Assembly (NCBI GenBank): GCA_964453785.1
Contig: CAYVRK010000014.1
Coordinates: 8,868 to 72,867 of the forward strand
Source of the DNA: an uncultured Bacteroides sp.
GTDB lineage: Bacteria > Bacteroidota > Bacteroidia > Bacteroidales > GCA-2748055
Reading direction: 5' to 3'
DNA length: 64,000 bases
Below the pieces are notes generated by a model that searched no databases, was not told the DNA's origin, and saw nothing but the letters and a program-made list of their open reading frames with translations. Of the stretch, positions 37,855 through 48,723 are shown piece by piece (positions within the stretch are counted from its first letter, which is position 1; each line of letters begins with the position of its first letter). Position numbers and translations under genes: made by a program.

Positions 37855-40800
37855 ATGAGGAAAATCATTGAAAGGTTTGTTGAATATCCTGTATATGCCA
37901 ACCTGATTCTGGCTATTGTCATTCTGGCCGGCGGACTGAGCCTCCTATCCCTGAAAAAGTCGTTCTTTCCGGAAACCGAAAGCAGGTATCTGTCCGTATC
38001 GGTATTTTACCCGGGAGCCTCACCGGTCGAAATGGAGGAGGGGGTGACAACGAGGATTGAGGAAGCGGTTCGTGGATTGATCGGGATTAAGGAGATTACC
38101 TCCACTTCCGTGGAGAACATGAGCAACATATCCATCGAAACCACAGGAGAGTATCCCATCAATGAAGTGCTGCAGGAAGTAAAAAATGCCGTGGATGGAA
38201 TCTCCTCCTTGCCCACTGCTGCAGAGCGCCCTATCGTTTCAAAAAGAAGATCCCGGGCAGGTGCCATCCGCATGGAACTGGTGCCGGTGGATGGACAGGA
38301 CATGGATTTGATGACCCTGAAGGAACATGCCCAGCGCATTGAAGAGGATTTTCTGAACTCCGGGGTGGCCAGCCAGGTCTCCACGTCGGGTTATCCCCAG
38401 CCGGAGATTTCTGTAGAAATAATGGAAGAAGTTCTGCTGCGATACAACATCACATTTGACCAGATAGTAAGGGCCATACAGAACAACAACCAGGATATCT
38501 CCGGTGGAGAGATCAAGTCTAAGGAAGAGGAGTACCTGATCAGGCTGCGTTCCAGGAGTGCCGATCCTGGTAAGATCGGGAATATTATTCTACGCGGTGA
38601 ACCCGATGGAAGTTTTATCCACATCAGGGATGTGGCAGAAGTGAAGGTCAAATTTGCAGACTCCCCCAACAAGCAATGGACCAACGGGAAACCCTCAGTT
38701 TCCATCGATGTTGAGAAACTTCCCGAAGAGGACCTGGATGAGATTACCAAGTGGGCCAACAACTACATTAAAGCGTTCAACAACCGGAACCAGGGCGTGG
38801 AGATCATTGTCTCCAGGGCCTACCTGGACATTCTCAAGAGCCGGCTCGACCTGCTCACAAGAAATGGATTGCTCGGGTTGGTGCTTGTCATCATTTCCCT
38901 GTCCATGTTCCTGAGTTTCAGACTTTCTCTCTGGGTTTCCTGGAGTATTCCTTTCAGCTTCCTGGCCATGTTTGTGGCCGCACATTTTCTTGGTGTAACC
39001 CTCAACCTCCAGTCTCTCTTCGGGATGATTCTGGTGGTCGGAATCCTGGTGGATGACGGGATTGTTATTGCAGAAAACATCTACCTGCAATTTGAGCGGG
39101 GCAAAACCCCCATGCATGCTGCTGTGGATGGGACCATGGAAGTAATGCCTGCCGTAATGACTTCAGTGGCTACAACCATCGTGGCATTCTCTCCCCTGCT
39201 GTTCCTTAACGGAACCCGCATGGAAATGATGTATGATGTGGCCATCGTGGTGATTGCCTCTCTGTTTTTCTCACTCTTCGAAGCACTCCTGGTTCTCCCG
39301 GCCCACCTGGGAAATAAAAGAGTGTTGAGCCGGAAAAGCATTGAAGCCAAGAGCAAGGGAATTAAAAAGTACTTTGAAGGTTTTATCAACTGGCTGCGGG
39401 ACCGCGTTTATCATTATTTTCTCAACTGGCTGGTGAAATGGCGGTATATTGCGCTCAGTTTCCCCATTGCGCTGGTCCTGATTACCATAGGACTGTTCAT
39501 GGGAGGACACATCCGAAACACCTTTTTCCCCATGGTGGACTTCGACAGTTTTACATTGAATGTGGCCTTTACCCCGGGGGATGGTGAAAAGCAAACCCTT
39601 GAATTCCTGGATCGTTTTGAGAAAGCAGTCTGGGAGGTGAATGACGAAATTGTTGAGGAGATGGGACTGGACCATAACATCATCGAACGTACCAGCAAAA
39701 GACTGGGCAGTGCATTTGAGGGCCAGGAGCGGGGAGCCCATGCCGGAAGCATCAATGTCTACCCGGTAGACCTGGAAGGATATCCCATCTCCGGGAGGGA
39801 CATATCCACCAGGGTAAATGCAAAAATTGGCCGGGTTCCCGAATCTAGAAAATTTACGGTGGGGGGACGCAACCGGTGGGGATCTCCCGTATCGGTCGGA
39901 CTGATGTCCAAAAACCTGCAGGAACTTGAGGAAGCCAAAGAGTTTCTCCTTGCACGCCTGAATGAAATGCCCCAGTTAAAAGATGTGAATGAAAACATTG
40001 CACTGGGTAAACAGGAAATCCGTCTCAATCTGAAGCCAAAGGCCTATTTCCTGGGATTGGATGAAAATGCCATTGCAGGTCAGGTGAGACAGGGATTTTA
40101 CGGAGCCCAGGCCCAGCGCCTGCAGGTGGGCCGGGACGAACTCAGGGTCTGGGTTCGCTATCCCAAATCGGACCGCCTCACCCTGGGTCAGATGGAGGAC
40201 ATGAAGATCAAAACTCCTTCGGGAATCTATCCGCTGTCAGAGCTGGCCGACTACCACATGGAGCGCGGACCGGTGGCCATCAACCGTTTCAACGGATCGC
40301 GTGAGATCCGGGTGGAAGCAGAAACTGTTGATCCGCTGGCTTCTGTGCCGGAGATTCTCGAACAAATTGAACATCAGATCATGCCGGAGGTGATGTCACG
40401 GTTCTCCGGTATCCGGTATATCTACCAGGGACAACAGCGGTACAGCCGTGAAGCCATGGGTCAGGCAGGTAAATATTATATGCTTGCCTTTGCCATTATT
40501 TTTATGTTGCTGGTTCTTCATTTCCACAGCGTACCGAAAGCATTTATTATCATCCTGATGATACCCATTTCGCTGCTGGGGGTAGCCTGGGGACACGGTC
40601 TTCATGGACAGCCTCTCTCCATGATGAGCTTGTGGGGTGCTGTGGCGCTAACCGGGGTGGTCATTAATGATGCCATTGTGTTCTATTCCAAATTTGACGG
40701 CTTGCTTATCGAAGGGTGGAAAGTTCCGGAGGCTGTGAAAGAGGCTGGTAAAGTGAGGCTCAGACCCATCATCCTTACTTCCCTTACTACCTCCGTTGGT

Positions 40801-41055
40801 TTGTTTCCCATGCTTTTTGAAAAAAGTGTTCAGGCGCAGTTCCTGATCCCCATGGCCATCAGCCTGGCCTATGGTGTGGCCCTTGGAACAATCTTTATCC
40901 TGATCTTTTTCCCGGTACTTATCATGCTATTAAACGATGCCCGTGTTTACACCAGATATCTCTGGACAGGAGTAAGACCATCCAGGGAAGAGGTGGAAAC
41001 AGCCATCATCCAGAACGAAAGGAAACTCAAATTTGAGCGAAACAAATCCGTATAA
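37855..41055 (+). CDS. RND efflux permease (AcrB/D/F family)
   Basis: 1066 aa; YPGASP.EME, GILVDDGIVI.ENI, GVVINDAI, RLRPIILTSLTT. Confidence 0.95.
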   Translation: MRKIIERFVEYPVYANLILAIVILAGGLSLLSLKKSFFPETESRYLSVSVFYPGASPVEMEEGVTTRIEEAVRGLIGIKEITSTSVENMSNISIETTGEYPINEVLQEVKNAVDGISSLPTAAERPIVSKRRSRAGAIRMELVPVDGQDMDLMTLKEHAQRIEEDFLNSGVASQVSTSGYPQPEISVEIMEEVLLRYNITFDQIVRAIQNNNQDISGGEIKSKEEEYLIRLRSRSADPGKIGNIILRGEPDGSFIHIRDVAEVKVKFADSPNKQWTNGKPSVSIDVEKLPEEDLDEITKWANNYIKAFNNRNQGVEIIVSRAYLDILKSRLDLLTRNGLLGLVLVIISLSMFLSFRLSLWVSWSIPFSFLAMFVAAHFLGVTLNLQSLFGMILVVGILVDDGIVIAENIYLQFERGKTPMHAAVDGTMEVMPAVMTSVATTIVAFSPLLFLNGTRMEMMYDVAIVVIASLFFSLFEALLVLPAHLGNKRVLSRKSIEAKSKGIKKYFEGFINWLRDRVYHYFLNWLVKWRYIALSFPIALVLITIGLFMGGHIRNTFFPMVDFDSFTLNVAFTPGDGEKQTLEFLDRFEKAVWEVNDEIVEEMGLDHNIIERTSKRLGSAFEGQERGAHAGSINVYPVDLEGYPISGRDISTRVNAKIGRVPESRKFTVGGRNRWGSPVSVGLMSKNLQELEEAKEFLLARLNEMPQLKDVNENIALGKQEIRLNLKPKAYFLGLDENAIAGQVRQGFYGAQAQRLQVGRDELRVWVRYPKSDRLTLGQMEDMKIKTPSGIYPLSELADYHMERGPVAINRFNGSREIRVEAETVDPLASVPEILEQIEHQIMPEVMSRFSGIRYIYQGQQRYSREAMGQAGKYYMLAFAIIFMLLVLHFHSVPKAFIIILMIPISLLGVAWGHGLHGQPLSMMSLWGAVALTGVVINDAIVFYSKFDGLLIEGWKVPEAVKEAGKVRLRPIILTSLTTSVGLFPMLFEKSVQAQFLIPMAISLAYGVALGTIFILIFFPVLIMLLNDARVYTRYLWTGVRPSREEVETAIIQNERKLKFERNKSV

Positions 41056-41056
41056 A

Positions 41057-42352
41057 ATGACTCAGAAGAGAAGACATATATTTTCCATGGCTTTCTTTGC
41101 CTTTTTTACCATGGCAGTGTTTCCGCAGGAAGAACTTACCCTCTCCGGGGCCATCGGCCGGGCCATGGAAAACAATTACGGACTGATCATTTCAAGAGCC
41201 GAAACTGAGATAGCCGGCATCAACAACAATTGGGGAAATGCCGGCCGTTATCCCACCATCGGGTTTGAAGCTTCGGAAAACAACAGTTATGACCTGCGGG
41301 ACGAGTCGTTCAGTAGCAGATTCTCAGCCGGTGTTGGGCTCAACTGGGTCCTCTTTGACGGTTTCAGGGTAAACATGACCAAAACCAAGCTCGGACAAAT
41401 GGAAATGCTGTCAGAGGGCAGGCTGGGAGTGCTGATCGAGAGCACCATTGAGGATGTGATCCTTGCCTATTACAACGTACTGCTGCAACAGGAACAGCTG
41501 AAGGTGCTTCAGACGGTGATGGAACTCTCCGATGACAGGTACCACTATGAACTGGATCGGAAATCCCTGGGCGGTTCTGTTACCTACAATGTTCTGCAGG
41601 CACAGAACGTATATCTCACGGATAAGGCCAATTACCTGAACCAGGAAATGGAAGTCAGAAATACAGTTCGCAACCTGAATTTTCTGATGGGCATTGAGCC
41701 CACCATCACCTGGGAGTTTGGTGACTCCTTTGAAGCAGATACTTCAAGGTATCAGCTTGGTGACCTGCTGTCGAAAATGAAGTCCAGCAACCAGACACTG
41801 AAGAATCAATATACCAACCTGATGCTGCAGGAAAATGCAAGCTCTATCAGCAAGAGTGCTTACGCTCCAACTTTTTCCGTGGGAGCGGGAATCGATTTAA
41901 GCGAGTCATGGACCGCTCAGGCAAATCAATCCACGGTCAACAGCAGTATTGCCCCTTATGGAAACCTGAGGCTCTCCTACGACATCTACAGTGCCGGAGT
42001 CCGGAAACGATCCGTGGAGGTCGCCCGGATCAATGAAGAAGTGGCCAGGGTCGAAATCCAGGAGATGGAACATGCCCTGACCAATGAGTTGTTCAACCTT
42101 TATGACTACTATGAAGTACGCATTGAATTGCTGAATGTGGCCATCGAAAACATGGCAGCAGCTGAACTGAACCTCTCCATTTCGGAAGAGAAATACAAAA
42201 CCGGCGTGATCAACTCGTTCAATTACAGGGATGTTCAGCTGATTTATCTGAATGCCGCCGTACGGTATCTGCAGTCTGTTTACGGTCTGATCAATTCCAA
42301 AACCCAGCTCACAAGGATCACCGGCGGATTCCTGGGAACCAGCTCGCAGTAA
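41057..42352 (+). CDS. TolC-family outer-membrane channel
   Basis: LTL..AI..A.ENN, VILAYYNVL, A..NL..SEEKY..G. Confidence 0.9.
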   Translation: MTQKRRHIFSMAFFAFFTMAVFPQEELTLSGAIGRAMENNYGLIISRAETEIAGINNNWGNAGRYPTIGFEASENNSYDLRDESFSSRFSAGVGLNWVLFDGFRVNMTKTKLGQMEMLSEGRLGVLIESTIEDVILAYYNVLLQQEQLKVLQTVMELSDDRYHYELDRKSLGGSVTYNVLQAQNVYLTDKANYLNQEMEVRNTVRNLNFLMGIEPTITWEFGDSFEADTSRYQLGDLLSKMKSSNQTLKNQYTNLMLQENASSISKSAYAPTFSVGAGIDLSESWTAQANQSTVNSSIAPYGNLRLSYDIYSAGVRKRSVEVARINEEVARVEIQEMEHALTNELFNLYDYYEVRIELLNVAIENMAAAELNLSISEEKYKTGVINSFNYRDVQLIYLNAAVRYLQSVYGLINSKTQLTRITGGFLGTSSQ

Positions 42353-42443: not shown

Positions 42444-43790
42444 ATGTCACGATCAAACCTCTTATCTGTTTGGGTGAGCGTTACATTCTTTCTGGTTCTG
42501 ACCAGTTGTACCCGCGATACCCGGTTTACAAATGAGATCATTCATATTGAAGGCGTTTCCAGAGCCTGCAATATCACTACTTCCTATGTCTGGTTCGGTT
42601 CCGCCAGTGAATCCGAGGCGCAACCGGAAGTGCGTCTGCCCGCATCGGATGGGGACCTTATCTATATGTTGAACGAGGATGGTTCAAATCTATATTACCG
42701 GTACAACCCGGATGACGGGATTCACCTGGTGATATCACAGGATACCATGAAACCGTACCTGTTCTTTATCAATGGTATGCTGAGTCAGTTTGAAGTGACT
42801 TCAGAGACCATTCACAGTCTGAATGAGGAACTCTTCACTTTGAAGCCCGGCCGGTTCCCAACCTTGCTGTTCAGTGATTCCCTTACCGGGACCATGATCA
42901 TGGAGCTGAAGAAGCTGCCGGAAAACTCCGGAGGATCGGGAATTCTTATTGAACATGATCTTTCAACCGGGACATTTCAGGACCTCATCTCCATCTGCAG
43001 ACCCAGCTGGCTGGTTGCAGAATCCCTCCCGGCAGGATCAGGAACAGACCGGTGGAAACTCCCCAAAGAACTGGAACTCCTGTGGATCACGGGGGCGCCC
43101 CTGTTATTCTCCGGGGATGACCTGTGTCAGGGAAACCTGGAATCGCTGATCATTGCTGAATGGTTGCCGGCCCGGGATGAAGTGATCCGTCTTTCTGGCC
43201 TGAAGAAACTTCATACACTCACACTGGCCAGCTGTAAAATACCCGATCTGTCGCCCATCCAGTTTCCGCGAAGCTTAAAGCGATTGTTTCTGGTCGGATG
43301 TGAAGAGCTTACCGATATTGCCGGTATTCCGTCCCTGAAATGTTTTGGAATGTCAGGCAGCCGTGATATATCATCCCTGGAACCTGTCAGGGAATTACCG
43401 GAACTTACGCGATTGGCATTCCCCGGCAACACCTCCCAGGAGGATTTTGAATCTGTCATTGAGTGGCTTCCTCATCTGGAAGTGGTAGAACTGATCGATT
43501 GTCCGGAGATCCATGACCTTTCTCCCCTGCAACAAAGCAGGAACCTGGAAATCCTGATTCTTCGTCCCGACTCGATTTTACCAGAACATATCGGATCCCT
43601 GGACCAGCTGGAACTGATCATTATAAGCGAAAAAATATTTGGAAATTCTCCGGAGTTTATCTCCGAACTCCGTTCACAACTCCCAAATACAATGATAGTT
43701 CCCGGCAGCGGACTGTGTCTGGGCTCGGGTTGGTTGTTGCTGATTCTCCCCATGGTGATTGCTGCAAGGTTCTTTTTCAAAAGAAAGTAA
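42444..43790 (+). CDS. Leucine-rich-repeat lipoprotein with a C-terminal Gly/Cys-TM-basic tail
   Basis: Lipobox LTSC; LRRs (LKKLHTLTLASCKIPDLSPI, LPHLEVVELIDCPEIHDLSPL); ends PGSGLCLGSGWLLLILPMVIAARFFFKRK. Confidence 0.8.
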   Translation: MSRSNLLSVWVSVTFFLVLTSCTRDTRFTNEIIHIEGVSRACNITTSYVWFGSASESEAQPEVRLPASDGDLIYMLNEDGSNLYYRYNPDDGIHLVISQDTMKPYLFFINGMLSQFEVTSETIHSLNEELFTLKPGRFPTLLFSDSLTGTMIMELKKLPENSGGSGILIEHDLSTGTFQDLISICRPSWLVAESLPAGSGTDRWKLPKELELLWITGAPLLFSGDDLCQGNLESLIIAEWLPARDEVIRLSGLKKLHTLTLASCKIPDLSPIQFPRSLKRLFLVGCEELTDIAGIPSLKCFGMSGSRDISSLEPVRELPELTRLAFPGNTSQEDFESVIEWLPHLEVVELIDCPEIHDLSPLQQSRNLEILILRPDSILPEHIGSLDQLELIIISEKIFGNSPEFISELRSQLPNTMIVPGSGLCLGSGWLLLILPMVIAARFFFKRK

Positions 43791-44469
43791 AAAACCCTCT
43801 GCCCTGGAACCTCTCCGGAATAGTGCGCTTTGTACCAGGCAGAACCTGCAACGAATCAGAGACGTGTCAGGAGCTGTGACCGGAATTTTGCTGTTTGCCC
43901 TGTTCGTTCATGATCCCGGGGCCCTAAGGGTCCTGGCTTATGCCAGCCTTGCGGCTTCAACAGTATGGATCGGCTATTCCACATGTCATGTTTCTCTCCT
44001 CAAGGTATGCGGAATTACACTACCTGGCCGCCGTACCCTGTTGTGCATTCTTCCGGCTCTACTACTGGGTGCCTTTCTGGGCATAGCCACGCGGAACAGG
44101 TTCGGGCTTTCTTTGATCCCCTTGACCCTGGGAAGGGTGGCTTTGGTGGCTCCCTGTATCGGGGCCTTTGAGGAGATTCTCTTCAGGGGATATATCCAGG
44201 GCACCCTTCAACCAGCAGGCAGAATCCTTTCCGTTGTGATTGCGGCCATAACCCACGCTGCCTATAAACTGCTCCTGATCTGTTCCTTTCCCGGACCCCT
44301 GCAATTCGATCTTTTATTTCTCGGGCTTTGGACCTTTGCAGGTGGACTGGCTTTCGGGATCCTGAAGGAACTGTCGGGAAACACGATACCCCCGGTAATC
44401 GCCCATGCGCTGTTTGACATCATCCTTTACGGAGGATTGTCTGTGGCACCGGCATGGGTCTGGGGCTAA
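43759..44469 (+). CDS. CPBP/Abi (Rce1-like) glutamic intramembrane protease; start uncertain (TTG 43759 or GTG 43864)
   Basis: FEEILFRG, downstream H (THAAY), HALFD; multiple TMs. Confidence 0.85.
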   Translation: MLQGSFSKESKKPSALEPLRNSALCTRQNLQRIRDVSGAVTGILLFALFVHDPGALRVLAYASLAASTVWIGYSTCHVSLLKVCGITLPGRRTLLCILPALLLGAFLGIATRNRFGLSLIPLTLGRVALVAPCIGAFEEILFRGYIQGTLQPAGRILSVVIAAITHAAYKLLLICSFPGPLQFDLLFLGLWTFAGGLAFGILKELSGNTIPPVIAHALFDIILYGGLSVAPAWVWG

Positions 44470-44607: not shown

Positions 44608-45018
44608 ATGGCCAACAACTATTTTTGTCCCGTTTGCAAAAGCAACATGAACATTGGAAATTCTTTGGTCTTTTCCGCCAAATCGCCAGACAACGTAAAG
44701 GGACTGATTTTTTTGGATACAGAACTGGGTGACTACACCAAAACCACCCACCCTGATTTTGAACTGCAGGAAGGCGTGAAATACACATTCTATTGCCCCA
44801 TTTGTCACGCCAAGCTGAACAAGAGGGAGAATCCAAACCTGGTGAAAATACTTATGACCGATGATTCAGATAAGGAGTGTGAGATCAATATCTCCAACAT
44901 CATAGGTGAATTTTGCACATACAAAATACTGGATAAAGAGACTGAGGCATTCGGTCCCGATGCAGACCATTACCGGAAATACCTTGATTTACCAAAAGAA
45001 TATCACAAATACTTATAG
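44608..45018 (+). CDS. Small soluble protein with two CxxC motifs (putative zinc-binding)
   Basis: YFCPVC and FYCPICH. Confidence 0.65.
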   Translation: MANNYFCPVCKSNMNIGNSLVFSAKSPDNVKGLIFLDTELGDYTKTTHPDFELQEGVKYTFYCPICHAKLNKRENPNLVKILMTDDSDKECEINISNIIGEFCTYKILDKETEAFGPDADHYRKYLDLPKEYHKYL

Positions 45019-45105: not shown

Positions 45106-45720
45106 ATGAAACTGATCCGCCATCCATTCGTTTTCGCTCTTGTTCTATCTGGGCTGTTTGCATCTCCCATACGGTCCGTATATGCGCAGGCTGACATGCC
45201 TCCGGTCATGGATTCAGCCACATTCGAGGCCCAGATGGAATACCTCCAGGAAAAGACCAGGATCTACAATGGTTTCAGGGCCATCCGGGATGATATATTC
45301 CTTAAAATGAAGGAGAATGCACTTGACTCAATGGCAAAAGAAAAACTGGAAGTAGCGCGGTTAAACAGCGAGATGAGTGAGCGTGATTTCCAGATTGAAT
45401 CACTGAATTCGGACCTGGTCCGGGCCAGGAATGAAAGAGATCAGGCCATCCGGACAAAAGACAGTTTCTCTTTCCTGGGTATCCAGATGCAAAAAGGTCT
45501 CTATAACACAATCATGTGGATCATTGTGCTGGGGCTTGCTTCTCTGGCAGTGATTCTCTTCCTGCTGTTCAAGCGAAGCCATGTGGTCACCGTTCAGACC
45601 AAGAAGGAGTTGGAAAATATCCAGGAAGCATTTGAGGAGTACCGGAAAAGCTCCAGGGAGAAATATGAAAAGCTGGTGGTCTCACATCACAGTGAAATCA
45701 TGAAACTGAAGCGTTCATGA
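45106..45720 (+). CDS. Signal-peptide/coiled-coil/TM protein of unknown function
   Basis: Signal peptide, coiled coil, KDSFSFLG, TM IMWIIVLGLASLAVILFLLF, C-terminal coiled coil. Confidence 0.65.
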   Translation: MKLIRHPFVFALVLSGLFASPIRSVYAQADMPPVMDSATFEAQMEYLQEKTRIYNGFRAIRDDIFLKMKENALDSMAKEKLEVARLNSEMSERDFQIESLNSDLVRARNERDQAIRTKDSFSFLGIQMQKGLYNTIMWIIVLGLASLAVILFLLFKRSHVVTVQTKKELENIQEAFEEYRKSSREKYEKLVVSHHSEIMKLKRS

Positions 45721-46619
45721 TTATATCAAGAGGAAATATTGGATTCATTGGCCTGGGAGTCATGGGAAAACCCATGAGTCTGAACCTGTTGAAAGCAGGA
45801 TATCACCTGACGGTATATGACATAAGGCCCGAAATGGTTGCAGAGGTAATGAAAGCCGGCGCTGTGGAAGGCGGCTCTCCATCCCGGGTGGCGGCAGAAA
45901 GTGATACCATTATTACCATGTTGCCCGACTCTCCCCAGGTGGAGGAGGTGATCCTCGGAAAAGAGGGTGTGCTGGAGGGGGCCAGACCGGGAAGCCTGAT
46001 CATCGATATGAGTTCCATCGCTCCCAGGGTTGCGGTTCAGATTTCTGAAGCTGCCGCATTGAAAGGTGTTGGTATGCTTGATGCGCCTGTAAGCGGGGGT
46101 GAACCCAAAGCCATCGATGGTACACTTTCCATCATGGTTGGGGGGGAGACCGGCTATTTCGAACGGGCCGAAGAGATTCTACTGACCATGGGTGCATCGG
46201 CTGTTTTGATGGGGAGCATCGGAAGTGGAAACATTACCAAACTGGCCAACCAGATCATGGTGGCCATTCACCTTGCGGCCATGTCAGAAGCAATGGTGTT
46301 TGCCGAAAAGGCCGGTGTCGATAGTGAAAAGGTATACCGGGCCATCAGGGGAGGCCTGGCCGGAAGTGCTGTGCTTGATGCAAAAATGCCTCTTATCCTT
46401 GAAAGGAATTTCAAACCCGGAGGCCCCATCCGGATGCATACCAAAGACCTGGTAAATGTCCGGGATACTGCATTTGAAATTGATGCACCTATCCCGCTTA
46501 CAACCCAGGTAATGGAGTTTATGAAAGCCCTGAAAGCTGATGGCCTGGAGGGTGATGACCACGGCGGCCTTATTCAGTACCATGAAAAATTGGCCGGGGT
46601 TACTGTAAAACGAAAATAG
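45717..46619 (+). CDS. garR: 2-hydroxy-3-oxopropionate (tartronate semialdehyde) reductase
   Basis: GFIGLGVMG.PM, MLPDSPQV, DAPVSGGEPKAIDGTL, KLANQ, GGLAGS.VL.AK, DHG...QY.EKLA. Confidence 0.85.
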   Translation: MIISRGNIGFIGLGVMGKPMSLNLLKAGYHLTVYDIRPEMVAEVMKAGAVEGGSPSRVAAESDTIITMLPDSPQVEEVILGKEGVLEGARPGSLIIDMSSIAPRVAVQISEAAALKGVGMLDAPVSGGEPKAIDGTLSIMVGGETGYFERAEEILLTMGASAVLMGSIGSGNITKLANQIMVAIHLAAMSEAMVFAEKAGVDSEKVYRAIRGGLAGSAVLDAKMPLILERNFKPGGPIRMHTKDLVNVRDTAFEIDAPIPLTTQVMEFMKALKADGLEGDDHGGLIQYHEKLAGVTVKRK

Positions 46620-46631
46620 TACTTCCCTTTC

Positions 46632-47657
46632 TCAAGCTTTCAAAGAGCCGCTGTAAAGGGCCACTTCATTTTTCCGCTGGTTGGCACTCAGGATATAATC
46701 CCTGTTTTCAAAAGCAAAAACCTGGGTTTGAGTCGGTCCTGCTTCTTCCTCAATAACATTCCGGTTTACAGCGCCTTTATCGAGGTTATCTACAGTAAAT
46801 ATTTCAAGGGCAAGAGAATCCCTGCGGTTGCCGGCCACAATCACCGGTTCCCCGTTGAACATGCCGCTGCTGAGGCCATGACCGAAGGAAAGGGAATCGG
46901 AGAATTTCAGTTTCCAATGACCGTCAAACCGTTTATAGATATTCAAAGCACTTCCATGAAAAGGTTCAATGGTGATCAATTCCAAAACCCCATCCCCATC
47001 CAGGTCCGCAAAGCCCATTTCACTTACCTCCCTGTCGAAAACCTGTTTTATTTCGATGCCCCCTGAAACAGCTGAACTTAATGCAAAAATTCCCTCTACT
47101 CCGGAGACACAAAGAGCTTCACGGCCATTGAAGCTGGTTTTAGTCATTCCGTGGTTGCGGGTAATCCCGGAATCCAGCAGCTGCGATCCCCAGCTTTCAG
47201 TGAGGCTTTCACCGGGAGTTAACAGGTAGATTTCCCCGGGCTTCGACCAATCCTGTGGGTTTTCCTTATGTTGGCTTACACTGGCTGCCACCAGAACTGA
47301 GCCGCCTTCAAGATGAAGGAATTCGCACCGGTGTGCAAAAGGGAGATCCATTGCTTTTGAAGTTTCCCAGCTATTTCCATGACGAATGTGAATATACAGG
47401 GCAGCATCTTTACCGATAAAAGGCGGGAAGAGTCCCATAATGGAGACATATGCATCCGGGTTTCCGGGAATAGGAATGAAACTCATCATCCCTCCCGGAC
47501 AGTGATCCGGTTGCTCCATCTTTTCTGTGGCCAGATTGTACAACTGAACCACCGGCTCGGTCTCAGAACCTGCCCCTATAAAGAATTGAGAACCCGACTG
47601 AAATGCGTGGGCCGTATACACATTTTTAATCTTCAGTATGTTTTGCTTTTTCAACAT
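46632..47657 (-). CDS. FG-GAP/VCBS-like beta-propeller protein, no signal peptide
   Basis: ADLDGDGVLELITIEPFHG repeat; repeated G....H motifs (PFAHR, ITRNHG, FGHG). Confidence 0.55.
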   Translation of the reverse strand: MLKKQNILKIKNVYTAHAFQSGSQFFIGAGSETEPVVQLYNLATEKMEQPDHCPGGMMSFIPIPGNPDAYVSIMGLFPPFIGKDAALYIHIRHGNSWETSKAMDLPFAHRCEFLHLEGGSVLVAASVSQHKENPQDWSKPGEIYLLTPGESLTESWGSQLLDSGITRNHGMTKTSFNGREALCVSGVEGIFALSSAVSGGIEIKQVFDREVSEMGFADLDGDGVLELITIEPFHGSALNIYKRFDGHWKLKFSDSLSFGHGLSSGMFNGEPVIVAGNRRDSLALEIFTVDNLDKGAVNRNVIEEEAGPTQTQVFAFENRDYILSANQRKNEVALYSGSLKA

Positions 47658-47817: not shown

Positions 47818-48723
47818 ATGAACAACATACCCGTACTCTGTGTTTCAGGGGAATCCCTCGCAGAAACCTATGAAGCTGCCCTGGTCAGGCTTTACAACGA
47901 AGGTACCCGTTTCAAAACCCAGTATGATAAACCAGGATATCCCCTGAGCCTGGACTGCACCCTGAATGCAACAGTTATCAATCCCGAAAGCGATCCTATG
48001 ATCCACCAGGCGTTTCCCGGGGGAATCGATGAGCTGAAAGAGTATGTGATGGAACTAAAGGGTTTTAAGGACCACTGGGTGAAAAACATGAATGACCCGG
48101 ATGATACCCGGTGGGAGTACACCTACCACGGGAGATTGCAGCGCTATGGTTCATGGAAGGAAACAGTAGTGGTGGATGGAGAAAGGATCCGGAAAGATGT
48201 GGGATTTCAGGTAGACCAGGTGGAACATGTCATCCAGAAGCTGGTTGAGCAGCCCTATACCCGGCAGGCACAGATGATCACCTGGATGCCAAACCACGAC
48301 CTCCAGGTATATGATCCTCCCTGTCTTCAATCTCTTTGGTACAGAATCATGGAAGATGAAGAGGGAATTCAGTGGCTGAACTGCAACATTCGGTTCCGAA
48401 GCAACGACGCCTGGGGAGCGAGTTTTATGAATATGTTCGGGTTTATCCGGTTCAACCGGGAGGTGATCGCTGATGAAATTTCCAGGAGGAGCGGGAAAAC
48501 CGTTCGCCTGGGAAGAATGAACTGGCAGGCTGATTCATACCACATTTATGGAAAGGATATCGCCCAGGCAAAGGCCATGCTGTTTGACCGTATCGGTTCT
48601 TTAACCGTGGAGGAGAGAACCTTCAACTTTGGAGATGATTTTATCAGGGATATGTACGAGCAGGCTGAGCAAACAACCCTGATGAAGATCAGGAAGTACG
48701 ACGAGGAGCATGCGCAGAAATAA
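47818..48723 (+). CDS. thyA: Divergent (archaeal-type) thymidylate synthase homologue
   Basis: YTYHGRL, YTRQA, DPPCLQ (catalytic Cys), RFRSNDAWGASFMN, ADSYHIY. Confidence 0.7.
   Translation: MNNIPVLCVSGESLAETYEAALVRLYNEGTRFKTQYDKPGYPLSLDCTLNATVINPESDPMIHQAFPGGIDELKEYVMELKGFKDHWVKNMNDPDDTRWEYTYHGRLQRYGSWKETVVVDGERIRKDVGFQVDQVEHVIQKLVEQPYTRQAQMITWMPNHDLQVYDPPCLQSLWYRIMEDEEGIQWLNCNIRFRSNDAWGASFMNMFGFIRFNREVIADEISRRSGKTVRLGRMNWQADSYHIYGKDIAQAKAMLFDRIGSLTVEERTFNFGDDFIRDMYEQAEQTTLMKIRKYDEEHAQK

Follow-up and report, generated by a model that had tools for sequence, protein, structure and literature searches.

A leucine-rich repeat protein with a conserved Cys-containing tail and its adjacent CPBP protease look like an undescribed one-client protein-sorting system

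Why would a gene for an exported leucine-rich repeat (LRR) protein run directly into a gene for an intramembrane protease of the CPBP family? The question is raised by 64,000 nucleotides of a contig from an uncultured Bacteroides sp. (CAYVRK010000014.1, positions 8,868 to 72,867, assembly GCA_964453785.1), a stretch that we refer to in its entirety as the window. A first-pass annotation of this DNA had read the two genes as a dedicated sorting pair, in which a CPBP protease with intact motifs acts on the Cys-containing C-terminal tail of the LRR protein, and had proposed to check the conservation of the tail and the co-occurrence and adjacency of the genes. Both genes, their coordinates, the blocks of the tail and the protease motifs are borne out by the open reading frames (ORFs) at 42444-43790 and 43759-44469, and the genes, described at first as abutting or overlapping, overlap by 32 nt. 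The two genes are obligately adjacent, the tail motif is conserved and carried by one protein family, and the protease has an Rce1-like fold with its catalytic residues intact. To us it looks like an undescribed one-client protein-sorting system, in which the protease would cleave the tail of the LRR protein.

The LRR gene (42444-43790, forward strand, as are all features of the pair) starts at ATG 42444 and encodes an envelope protein precursor of 448 amino acids plus stop, the proposed client. Its final 36 residues, L413 to K448 (43680-43787), read LPNTMIVPGSGLCLGSGWLLLILPMVIAARFFFKRK and follow the pattern LP-x-T-x-IV-PGSG-L-C-L-GSG-W, continued by a Leu-rich helix with Pro436 and then by R442 and KRK. 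Read in blocks (PGSGLCLGSGW-LLLILPMVIAA-RFFFKRK), the tail has the tripartite layout of a signature, a hydrophobic helix, and a basic cluster at the extreme C terminus, in a protein that also has an N-terminal signal peptide. The core signature C425-L-G-S-G-W430 (43716-43733), delimited by conservation, may be the site of recognition or cleavage. It leads into a predicted transmembrane (TM) helix of residues 429 to 447 with a basic cytoplasmic end (43728-43784), in which Pro436 is encoded at 43749-43751.

Conservation was assessed in an alignment of 128 sequences, including 50%-identity cluster representatives whose bodies are 18 to 30% identical to the window protein; body identity across all 128 relatives ranges from 18 to 82%. 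Three columns of this alignment are invariant and no others: C425 (invariant also in the tails of all loci described below), G427, and P436. S428 (0.98), G429 (0.99), and W430 (0.99) follow closely. The majority-residue fraction is 0.77 for tail residues 413 to 436 versus 0.40 for the body, and columns that are at least 90% conserved make up 10 of 24 in the tail versus 8 of 384 in the body. The tail is the most constrained region of the LRR protein, a favorable outcome for the first of the proposed checks. Nearly all close homologues end in IVPGSG[LI]CLGSGW[LI]LLL[LI]P. Of the signature as first described, the part conserved throughout the family is C-[LM]-G-S-G-W, followed by a Leu-rich helix and Pro at +11 from the Cys; only the closer Bacteroidales clade typically has the PGSG prefix, in place of which distant members carry NEGF, EPF, or NSG.

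Two other roles for the tail Cys were considered. The motif is not a second lipobox, since position -1 is Leu or Ile and not Gly, Ala, or Ser. A disulfide seems unlikely: neither the alignment of the CPBP clade nor that of the LRR body contains a second invariant Cys, which speaks against a conserved disulfide between invariant Cys residues of the pair and favors modification or recognition, although a homodimeric disulfide is still conceivable.

The tail is also specific to one family. A hidden Markov model (HMM) of the tail alone, 36 positions long, gave 251 matches at E ≤ 1e-3 among 1.84 billion representative proteins. The best 150 of these 251 included 144 newly returned proteins, 129 of which match an HMM of the LRR body from which the tail had been removed; the remaining 15 are short C-terminal fragments from contig ends. 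A metagenome scan for C[LM]GSGW[LI]L[LV] recovered 421 DNA stretches, with 383 confirmed as LRR relatives, and the window itself holds one CLGSGW-type motif and one CPBP gene. The description of the pair as a one-target system is thus upheld among the best 150 of the 251 tail-HMM matches, where the tail occurs on a single protein family.

The pairing of the two genes is close to absolute. On the LRR side, we counted 62 metagenomic loci with at least 700 nt of downstream DNA. A CPBP gene follows on the same strand in all 62 and is directly adjacent in 61, with the first aligned CPBP residue 4 to 300 nt past the LRR stop; in the lone nonadjacent case (locus L079) this distance is 733 nt. Eight shorter metagenomic loci have a CPBP gene truncated at the contig end. 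On the CPBP side, a scan of GTDB species genomes found 16 full-length relatives, 15 of them with upstream DNA, and the upstream ORF in 15 of 15 is ∼450 to 515 amino acids long and ends in C[LMI]G[ST][GV][WY] plus a helix. Four further distant pairs, of which two were reached from the most divergent tail-HMM matches, are likewise adjacent (4/4). Gene order is constant, with the LRR gene first on the same strand and the genes overlapping or nearly abutting. Neither gene occurs without the other in these 62/62, 15/15, and 4/4 loci, a favorable outcome for the second proposed check as well.

We clustered the ORFs of 50 loci of at least 6 kb and found that the LRR and CPBP families alone are present in 50 of 50. 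The next commonest families, an FtsX-type ATP-binding cassette (ABC) permease and a TolC-like protein, reach 17 and 16 loci, which suggests subclade synteny of efflux genes and not membership in the module. These 50 loci hold no conserved third gene, such as one for a lipid transferase or a secretion component. The LRR and CPBP genes form a strict two-gene module.

The 15 GTDB loci include two isolates, Shivajiella indica KCTC 19812 and Flavobacterium sp. ZS1P14, and metagenome-assembled genomes (MAGs) labeled Bacteroidales, Rikenellaceae, Prolixibacteraceae, Cyclobacteriaceae, Gemmatimonadaceae, and Spirochaetales. The pair therefore spans at least three phyla: Bacteroidota, Gemmatimonadota, and Spirochaetota. 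The system had been proposed for a Bacteroidales genome; Bacteroidales do carry it, and so do other orders of Bacteroidota and MAGs of the other two phyla.

The LRR protein itself was modeled with AlphaFold2 (AF2) on the 128-sequence alignment, with a mean predicted local distance difference test (pLDDT) score of 91.2. The model consists of a signal helix (residues 3 to 21), a beta domain (31 to 118), the solenoid, an irregular segment that contains the Cys (G423 to S428), and the TM helix (429 to 447). At the N terminus, the signal peptide and the lipobox L19-T-S-C22 (42444-42509; Cys codon 42507-42509) are read from the sequence; the lipobox fits [LVI][ASTVI][GAS]C at the end of the signal peptide, and lipidation is predicted. 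This feature of the window protein had been recognized at the outset, and it is common in the family but not universal: the lipobox column holds Cys in 105 of 128 diverse members (82%). A beta-rich domain of residues ∼31 to 118 (42534-42797; strand pLDDT, 92 to 98) precedes the solenoid and had no match in a Pfam scan. The solenoid, residues ∼120 to 422 (42801-43709), was delimited by AF2 secondary structure and by the Pfam families LRR_4 and LRR_R13L1-DRL21. Its last strand (residues 417 to 422, MIVPGS) leads directly into the tail motif. Membership in the LRR family is supported by both the Pfam match (LRR_4, PF12799; 32.2 bits versus a cutoff of 27) and the solenoid fold.

Fold matches of the model in the PDB are confined to internalins, Leptospira LRR (LIC) proteins, and Toll-like receptors; these are generic LRR proteins, and the search yielded no clue to a ligand. 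A word-indexed search recovered 217 homologues of ∼450 amino acids, with 37 to 82% identity among the 120 listed. Those named by their source are called hypothetical protein, except for two labeled as LRR proteins. A scan for promoters and terminators gave no signal above shuffled controls.

A few family members have unusual architectures. In P0266 (JGI sample 3300075153, 6.1-kb contig), a BlaR1-like Peptidase_M56 domain with its HExxH motif precedes the LRR body and CLGSGW tail in an in-frame fusion, giving a protein of 748 amino acids; the gene order is BlaI-like repressor, M56-LRR-tail fusion, Rce1-like CPBP, and radical SAM/SPASM protein. Its sibling P0230 (locus L124, 4001-5416) lacks the M56 domain, keeps the linker KRLAMMTKIQ, and is followed by a CPBP gene start 16 nt downstream. 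P0327 (825 amino acids) has ∼370 additional N-terminal residues, comprising a beta-rich region and a TM segment, before the LRR body and tail. In P0330 (675 amino acids), which comes from a high-GC organism, the reading frame continues beyond the tail into Arg/Pro/Gly sequence of low complexity, probably a gene-call or frameshift artifact across the CPBP start.

The second gene of the module (43759-44469) encodes a CPBP/Rce1-like glutamic intramembrane protease of 236 amino acids, counted from TTG 43759, the only start before the conserved RQNLQRIRD segment (an alternative start is GTG 43864). It matches Pfam Rce1-like (PF02517) at 53.5 bits versus a gathering score of 22.4 (E, 3.1e-14), and 81 homologues were found. 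The motifs EExxxR, FxxxH-type His, and HxxxN/D are all intact. Motif 1, E138-E139-I-L-F-R143, lies at 44170-44187 (E138/E139, 44170-44175; R143, 44185-44187), motif 2, H166-A-A-Y169-K170, at 44254-44268 (H166, 44254-44256), and motif 3, H216-A-L-F219-D220, at 44404-44418 (H216, 44404-44406; D220, 44416-44418). Across 75 clade members there is no variation in the catalytic residues E138, E139, R143, H166, H216, and D220 or in Y169, K170, and F219.

An AF2 model of the protease (pLDDT, 90.9) has seven TM helices, and its sole meaningful fold match in the PDB is MmRce1 (4cad; Foldseek probability, 1.0; TM-score, 0.52). A sequence-profile search of the PDB with the CPBP clade found no relative. 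By sequence comparison, this clade is a divergent CPBP lineage. Based on the invariant catalytic residues and the MmRce1-like fold of the model, the protease looks active. Applied to the 75 clade members, the positive-inside rule predicts a topology with the N terminus in and the C terminus out. The clade-specific invariant residues H51, P121, D184, P231, W233, and W235 would then lie on the predicted periplasmic side, where the tail motif sits.

How does the pair relate to sorting systems already described? Four Cys-containing tripartite tails have been assigned to CPBP enzymes (Haft, 10.1101/2023.06.07.544157). One of these enzymes, MrtX, removes the MYXO-CTERM tail of TraA; the Cys is required, and the reaction also proceeds in E. 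coli (Guo, Haft & Wall, mBio 2025, PMC11980579). Lipidation of the MYXO-CTERM Cys remains hypothetical (PMC11980579). No NCBIfam family matched two of our tail sequences at E ≤ 10, a threshold at which HMMER filters can still drop very short, weak matches, and a full-length scan against NCBIfam gave no match to MYXO-CTERM (TIGR03901), JDVT-CTERM, Synerg-CTERM, or CGP-CTERM (TIGR04288). This agrees with the initial remark that no named CTERM family has this motif. Literature searches found no paper on this LRR/CPBP pair and nothing beyond the myxosortase papers.

The first-pass annotation had also proposed a tree of the protease with MrtX/MrtJ-type sortases, and the model scores do not support such a link. 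The best NCBIfam matches of the window CPBP are to myxosortase HMMs, led by MrtS, Mrt_core, and MrtJ, but all stay far below the cutoffs: 27.2 versus 100 bits for Mrt_core (NF040914), 25.6 versus 75 for MrtJ (NF033192), 29.6 versus 130 for MrtS (NF040589), and 24 versus 250 for one further Mrt model. Among 27 clade members scanned, the best Mrt E values are 2e-9 to 2e-7, and none comes near the curated cutoffs. In a control set of ten unrelated CPBPs (Chloroflexi, Acidobacteriota, archaea, and others), scores on the same models are ∼20 to 67 bits, and most of these proteins match or outscore the window CPBP. We therefore dropped kinship based on these subthreshold matches, which reflect the shared CPBP core.

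The closest counterpart in organization is JDVT-CTERM/MrtJ, a dedicated system whose genes are neighbors and which has one client in each genome (10.1101/2023.06.07.544157). In both systems one client is encoded beside its own CPBP-family glutamic intramembrane protease, and the tail joins a single invariant Cys to a Leu-rich helix that contains a conserved Pro and ends in basic residues. Both are spread sporadically over several lineages, and in both the function is assigned from the conserved two-gene neighborhood. They differ in their motifs, with CLGSGW and Pro at +11 here and a DP motif at +9 in JDVT-CTERM, and in their hosts, which are Bacteroidota, Gemmatimonadota, and Spirochaetota here and Pseudomonadota for the MrtJ system. 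Here, moreover, the client always belongs to the same LRR family and usually has an N-terminal lipobox as well, and on the MrtJ model the window CPBP scores no better than unrelated CPBPs.

Likeness to the other systems is more partial. With MYXO-CTERM/MrtX the pair shares a Cys-containing juxtamembrane motif and a TM helix on a Sec-exported protein (the MYXO-CTERM tail ends Arg-rich) and a CPBP protease with an Rce1-like seven-TM fold, and MrtX provides the experimental precedent for Cys-dependent tail removal by such an enzyme. However, MrtX is a housekeeping enzyme for dozens of unlinked, unrelated clients with a modular tail, whereas the present system has one client family in an obligate operon; Pro is invariant in the helix here and absent from MYXO-CTERM helices. 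Synerg-CTERM, the partner of MrtS, likewise combines an invariant Cys and a short tail with an invariant Pro inside the Leu-rich helix (10.1101/2023.06.07.544157) but is limited to Synergistetes and has several clients. Rce1 (MmRce1, 4cad) resembles our protease in fold and catalytic motifs, and C-L-G-S resembles C-a-a-X in placing small or aliphatic residues after the Cys. CaaX, however, is prenylated and forms the extreme C terminus of a cytosolic protein, while here a TM helix follows a Cys on the periplasmic side of an exported protein. Internalins, among the best fold matches, and sortase A (LPXTG) also combine an envelope LRR ectodomain and a C-terminal tripartite signal with a dedicated enzyme, but sortase A is a Cys transpeptidase with a different motif that serves many clients in Gram-positive cell-wall anchoring, in contrast to the glutamic intramembrane protease found here. 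The module has a motif of its own, its own divergent protease clade, a single LRR client family, and a spread over several phyla; it would belong to a kind already known, the CPBP-processed, Cys-containing C-terminal signals of the dedicated type.

We hold with moderate confidence that the two genes encode a dedicated processing pair, one client with its own intramembrane protease, analogous to JDVT-CTERM/MrtJ. In the mechanism that we propose, Sec would export the LRR precursor, and the lipobox Cys predicted from the sequence of most members would be lipidated. The C-terminal helix (residues 429 to 447) would anchor the precursor in the inner membrane with RFFFKRK in the cytoplasm, as the AF2 model and the positive-inside rule suggest. 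By analogy with the systems above, the cotranslated seven-TM CPBP may then recognize the juxtamembrane GSG-L-C425-L-GSG-W together with the Leu-rich helix kinked at Pro436. It would cut at or just after Cys425, the models being the action of MrtX on MYXO-CTERM and that of Rce1 on CaaX. Cleavage would strip off the C-terminal anchor and leave the N-terminal lipid, perhaps together with a modified C-terminal Cys, as the only attachment of the LRR domain, which could then proceed to its final location in the envelope.

Several observations weigh against this reading. Approximately 18% of the members have no lipobox, and some have an apparent uncleaved N-terminal signal anchor; in such proteins cleavage of the tail could not free the protein from the inner membrane. 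The AF2 model contains no flexible linker, with Cys425 three residues past the last LRR strand, so the folded LRR domain must sit directly on the protease. Judged by the model scores, the CPBP clade has no specific sequence affinity to the Mrt families, so the myxosortase analogy rests on gene context and motif architecture rather than on phylogeny. The inspection of tail-HMM matches covered the best 150 of 251, and among these the tail was not found on unrelated proteins. Confinement to one family fits a one-client system, yet it lacks the modularity of a classical sorting signal. Of the assignment to the tripartite sorting-signal class, the signature, helix, and basic cluster stand, as does the co-occurrence with a cognate enzyme; modularity does not. 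Moreover, with the tail never on a second family, a sorting signal and a conserved docking helix are inseparable by sequence alone, and an uncleaved docking helix predicts the identical co-occurrence.

That docking helix is the core of the alternative that survives best, a stable complex with an uncleaved LRR protein that serves as a sensor or recruits substrates. The tail helix of this subunit would dock in the CPBP, which would act on some other substrate or be regulated by a ligand through the LRR domain. Exclusivity of the tail to one orthologous family is what a subunit interface would produce, the LRR domain meets the membrane with no linker between them in the AF2 model, and some members are anchored twice, by an N-terminal signal anchor and the C-terminal helix. 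One lineage, moreover, has the LRR body and tail in the sensor position of a BlaR1-type M56 transducer, with a BlaI-like repressor beside it and the CPBP downstream, which suggests a sensing role for the LRR domain. We nevertheless consider such a complex unlikely, if worth keeping in view. The strongest conservation falls on a contiguous Gly/Ser/Cys stretch outside the helix and traces no helical face; in the AF2 model this stretch is nonhelical and separates the final strand of the solenoid from the TM helix, and a motif of that kind fits an enzyme site more readily than the packing of helices. Pure docking would hardly account for an invariant Cys that lacks a conserved Cys partner. The 50 loci of at least 6 kb show no other conserved candidate substrate gene nearby, and the client has no cytoplasmic output domain, just 4 to 10 basic or aromatic residues. 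The small-residue motif around the Cys, the lack of a second invariant Cys, and the invariant catalytic residues favor an enzyme and its substrate over docking.

A second alternative keeps the Cys at the center and dispenses with endoproteolysis. The CPBP would transfer, or help to transfer, an acyl or lipid group to Cys425, or would act on the N-terminal lipoprotein Cys in the manner of LnsB, a CPBP-family protein that reportedly takes part in lipoprotein N-acylation in S. aureus. The tail Cys is indeed invariant, and the 50 loci hold no conserved gene for a separate lipid transferase near the pair. We find this improbable, however, given that the complete protease catalytic set (EE, R, H, and H/D) is invariant and that client cleavage has been demonstrated for MrtX, which among the tested CPBPs is the nearest in context (PMC11980579). 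The tail Cys is present in all members and the lipobox Cys in 82%, which ties the CPBP to the tail rather than the N-terminal Cys.

Finally, the idea that the tail does no more than anchor the protein in the membrane and that the CPBP gene is an inherited neighbor, to which the many loci from related Bacteroidota and the upstream efflux genes shared by 16 to 17 of 50 loci lend some color, is close to refuted and essentially excluded by the pairing, neighborhood, and tail conservation, because the pair survives while all flanking genes change, in three phyla and down to ∼20% body identity, and because an ordinary anchor would not retain 6 to 10 invariant residues as its ectodomain diverges.

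A processing pair of client and protease thus stays our preferred reading, and the interpretation given in the first-pass annotation is supported by its computational tests, save for specific kinship to the Mrt families. A more ambitious version is speculative, and we doubt it as a whole. It would make the module a fifth, previously unnamed Cys-type C-terminal system (“CLGSGW-CTERM”) in Bacteroidota, Gemmatimonadota, and Spirochaetota, in which a divergent CPBP, independent of the myxosortases in origin, cuts at the invariant Cys and leaves a lipid-modified C-terminal Cys. The LRR domain would then form an arch lipid-tethered from Cys22 to Cys425, and in some lineages it would have been recruited as the sensor of a BlaR1-type signaling protease.

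The surroundings of the pair in the window were also annotated. Upstream, an AcrB-type resistance-nodulation-division (RND) transporter gene (37855-41055, forward strand; ACR_tran, 510 bits) overlaps the downstream gene for a TolC-like outer-membrane efflux protein (41033-42352, forward strand; OEP, 148 bits), the immediate upstream neighbor of the LRR gene. Only 16 to 17 of 50 related loci have an FtsX-type ABC permease or a TolC-like gene ahead of the pair, which looks like subclade synteny and not like part of the module. Just past the CPBP gene is an ORF of 136 amino acids (44608-45018, forward strand) with two CxxC pairs (CPVC...CPIC) that resemble a zinc ribbon; its sole Pfam match is subthreshold (CoiA_N, 24.5 versus 26.3 bits). 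It is followed on the forward strand by a gene for a 204-amino-acid protein with a signal peptide, a coiled coil, a TM segment, and no Pfam match (45106-45720) and by a 3-hydroxyisobutyrate-dehydrogenase-like gene (45717-46619; NAD_binding_2 and NAD_binding_11); related locus L002 keeps both downstream of the pair. An ORF of 341 amino acids on the reverse strand (46632-47657) has no Pfam match. The 301-amino-acid product of 47818-48723 (forward strand) matches thymidylate synthase only weakly and over part of its length (40.7 bits, residues 120 to 255), which suggests a divergent ThyA-like enzyme.

To our knowledge, bacterial CPBP/Rce1-like proteases are abundant and very few have a known substrate; the first to be shown to be a sorting enzyme, MrtX, was reported only in 2025. 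Against this background, the module offers a pair of one enzyme and one substrate with a sharply defined motif, C-L-G-S-G-W plus Pro at +11, and its culturable hosts, S. indica KCTC 19812 and Flavobacterium sp. ZS1P14, make it a clean study system. Questions that could be addressed with it include whether bacterial CPBPs need a lipidated Cys, where exactly they cut, and how a substrate helix enters the enzyme. Surface display in Bacteroidota is usually credited to lipoprotein export signals and the type IX secretion system (T9SS). If our reading is true, Cys-type C-terminal sorting would extend to this phylum, and ∼250 clusters (at 50% identity) of “hypothetical” LRR proteins would gain a name and a testable role.

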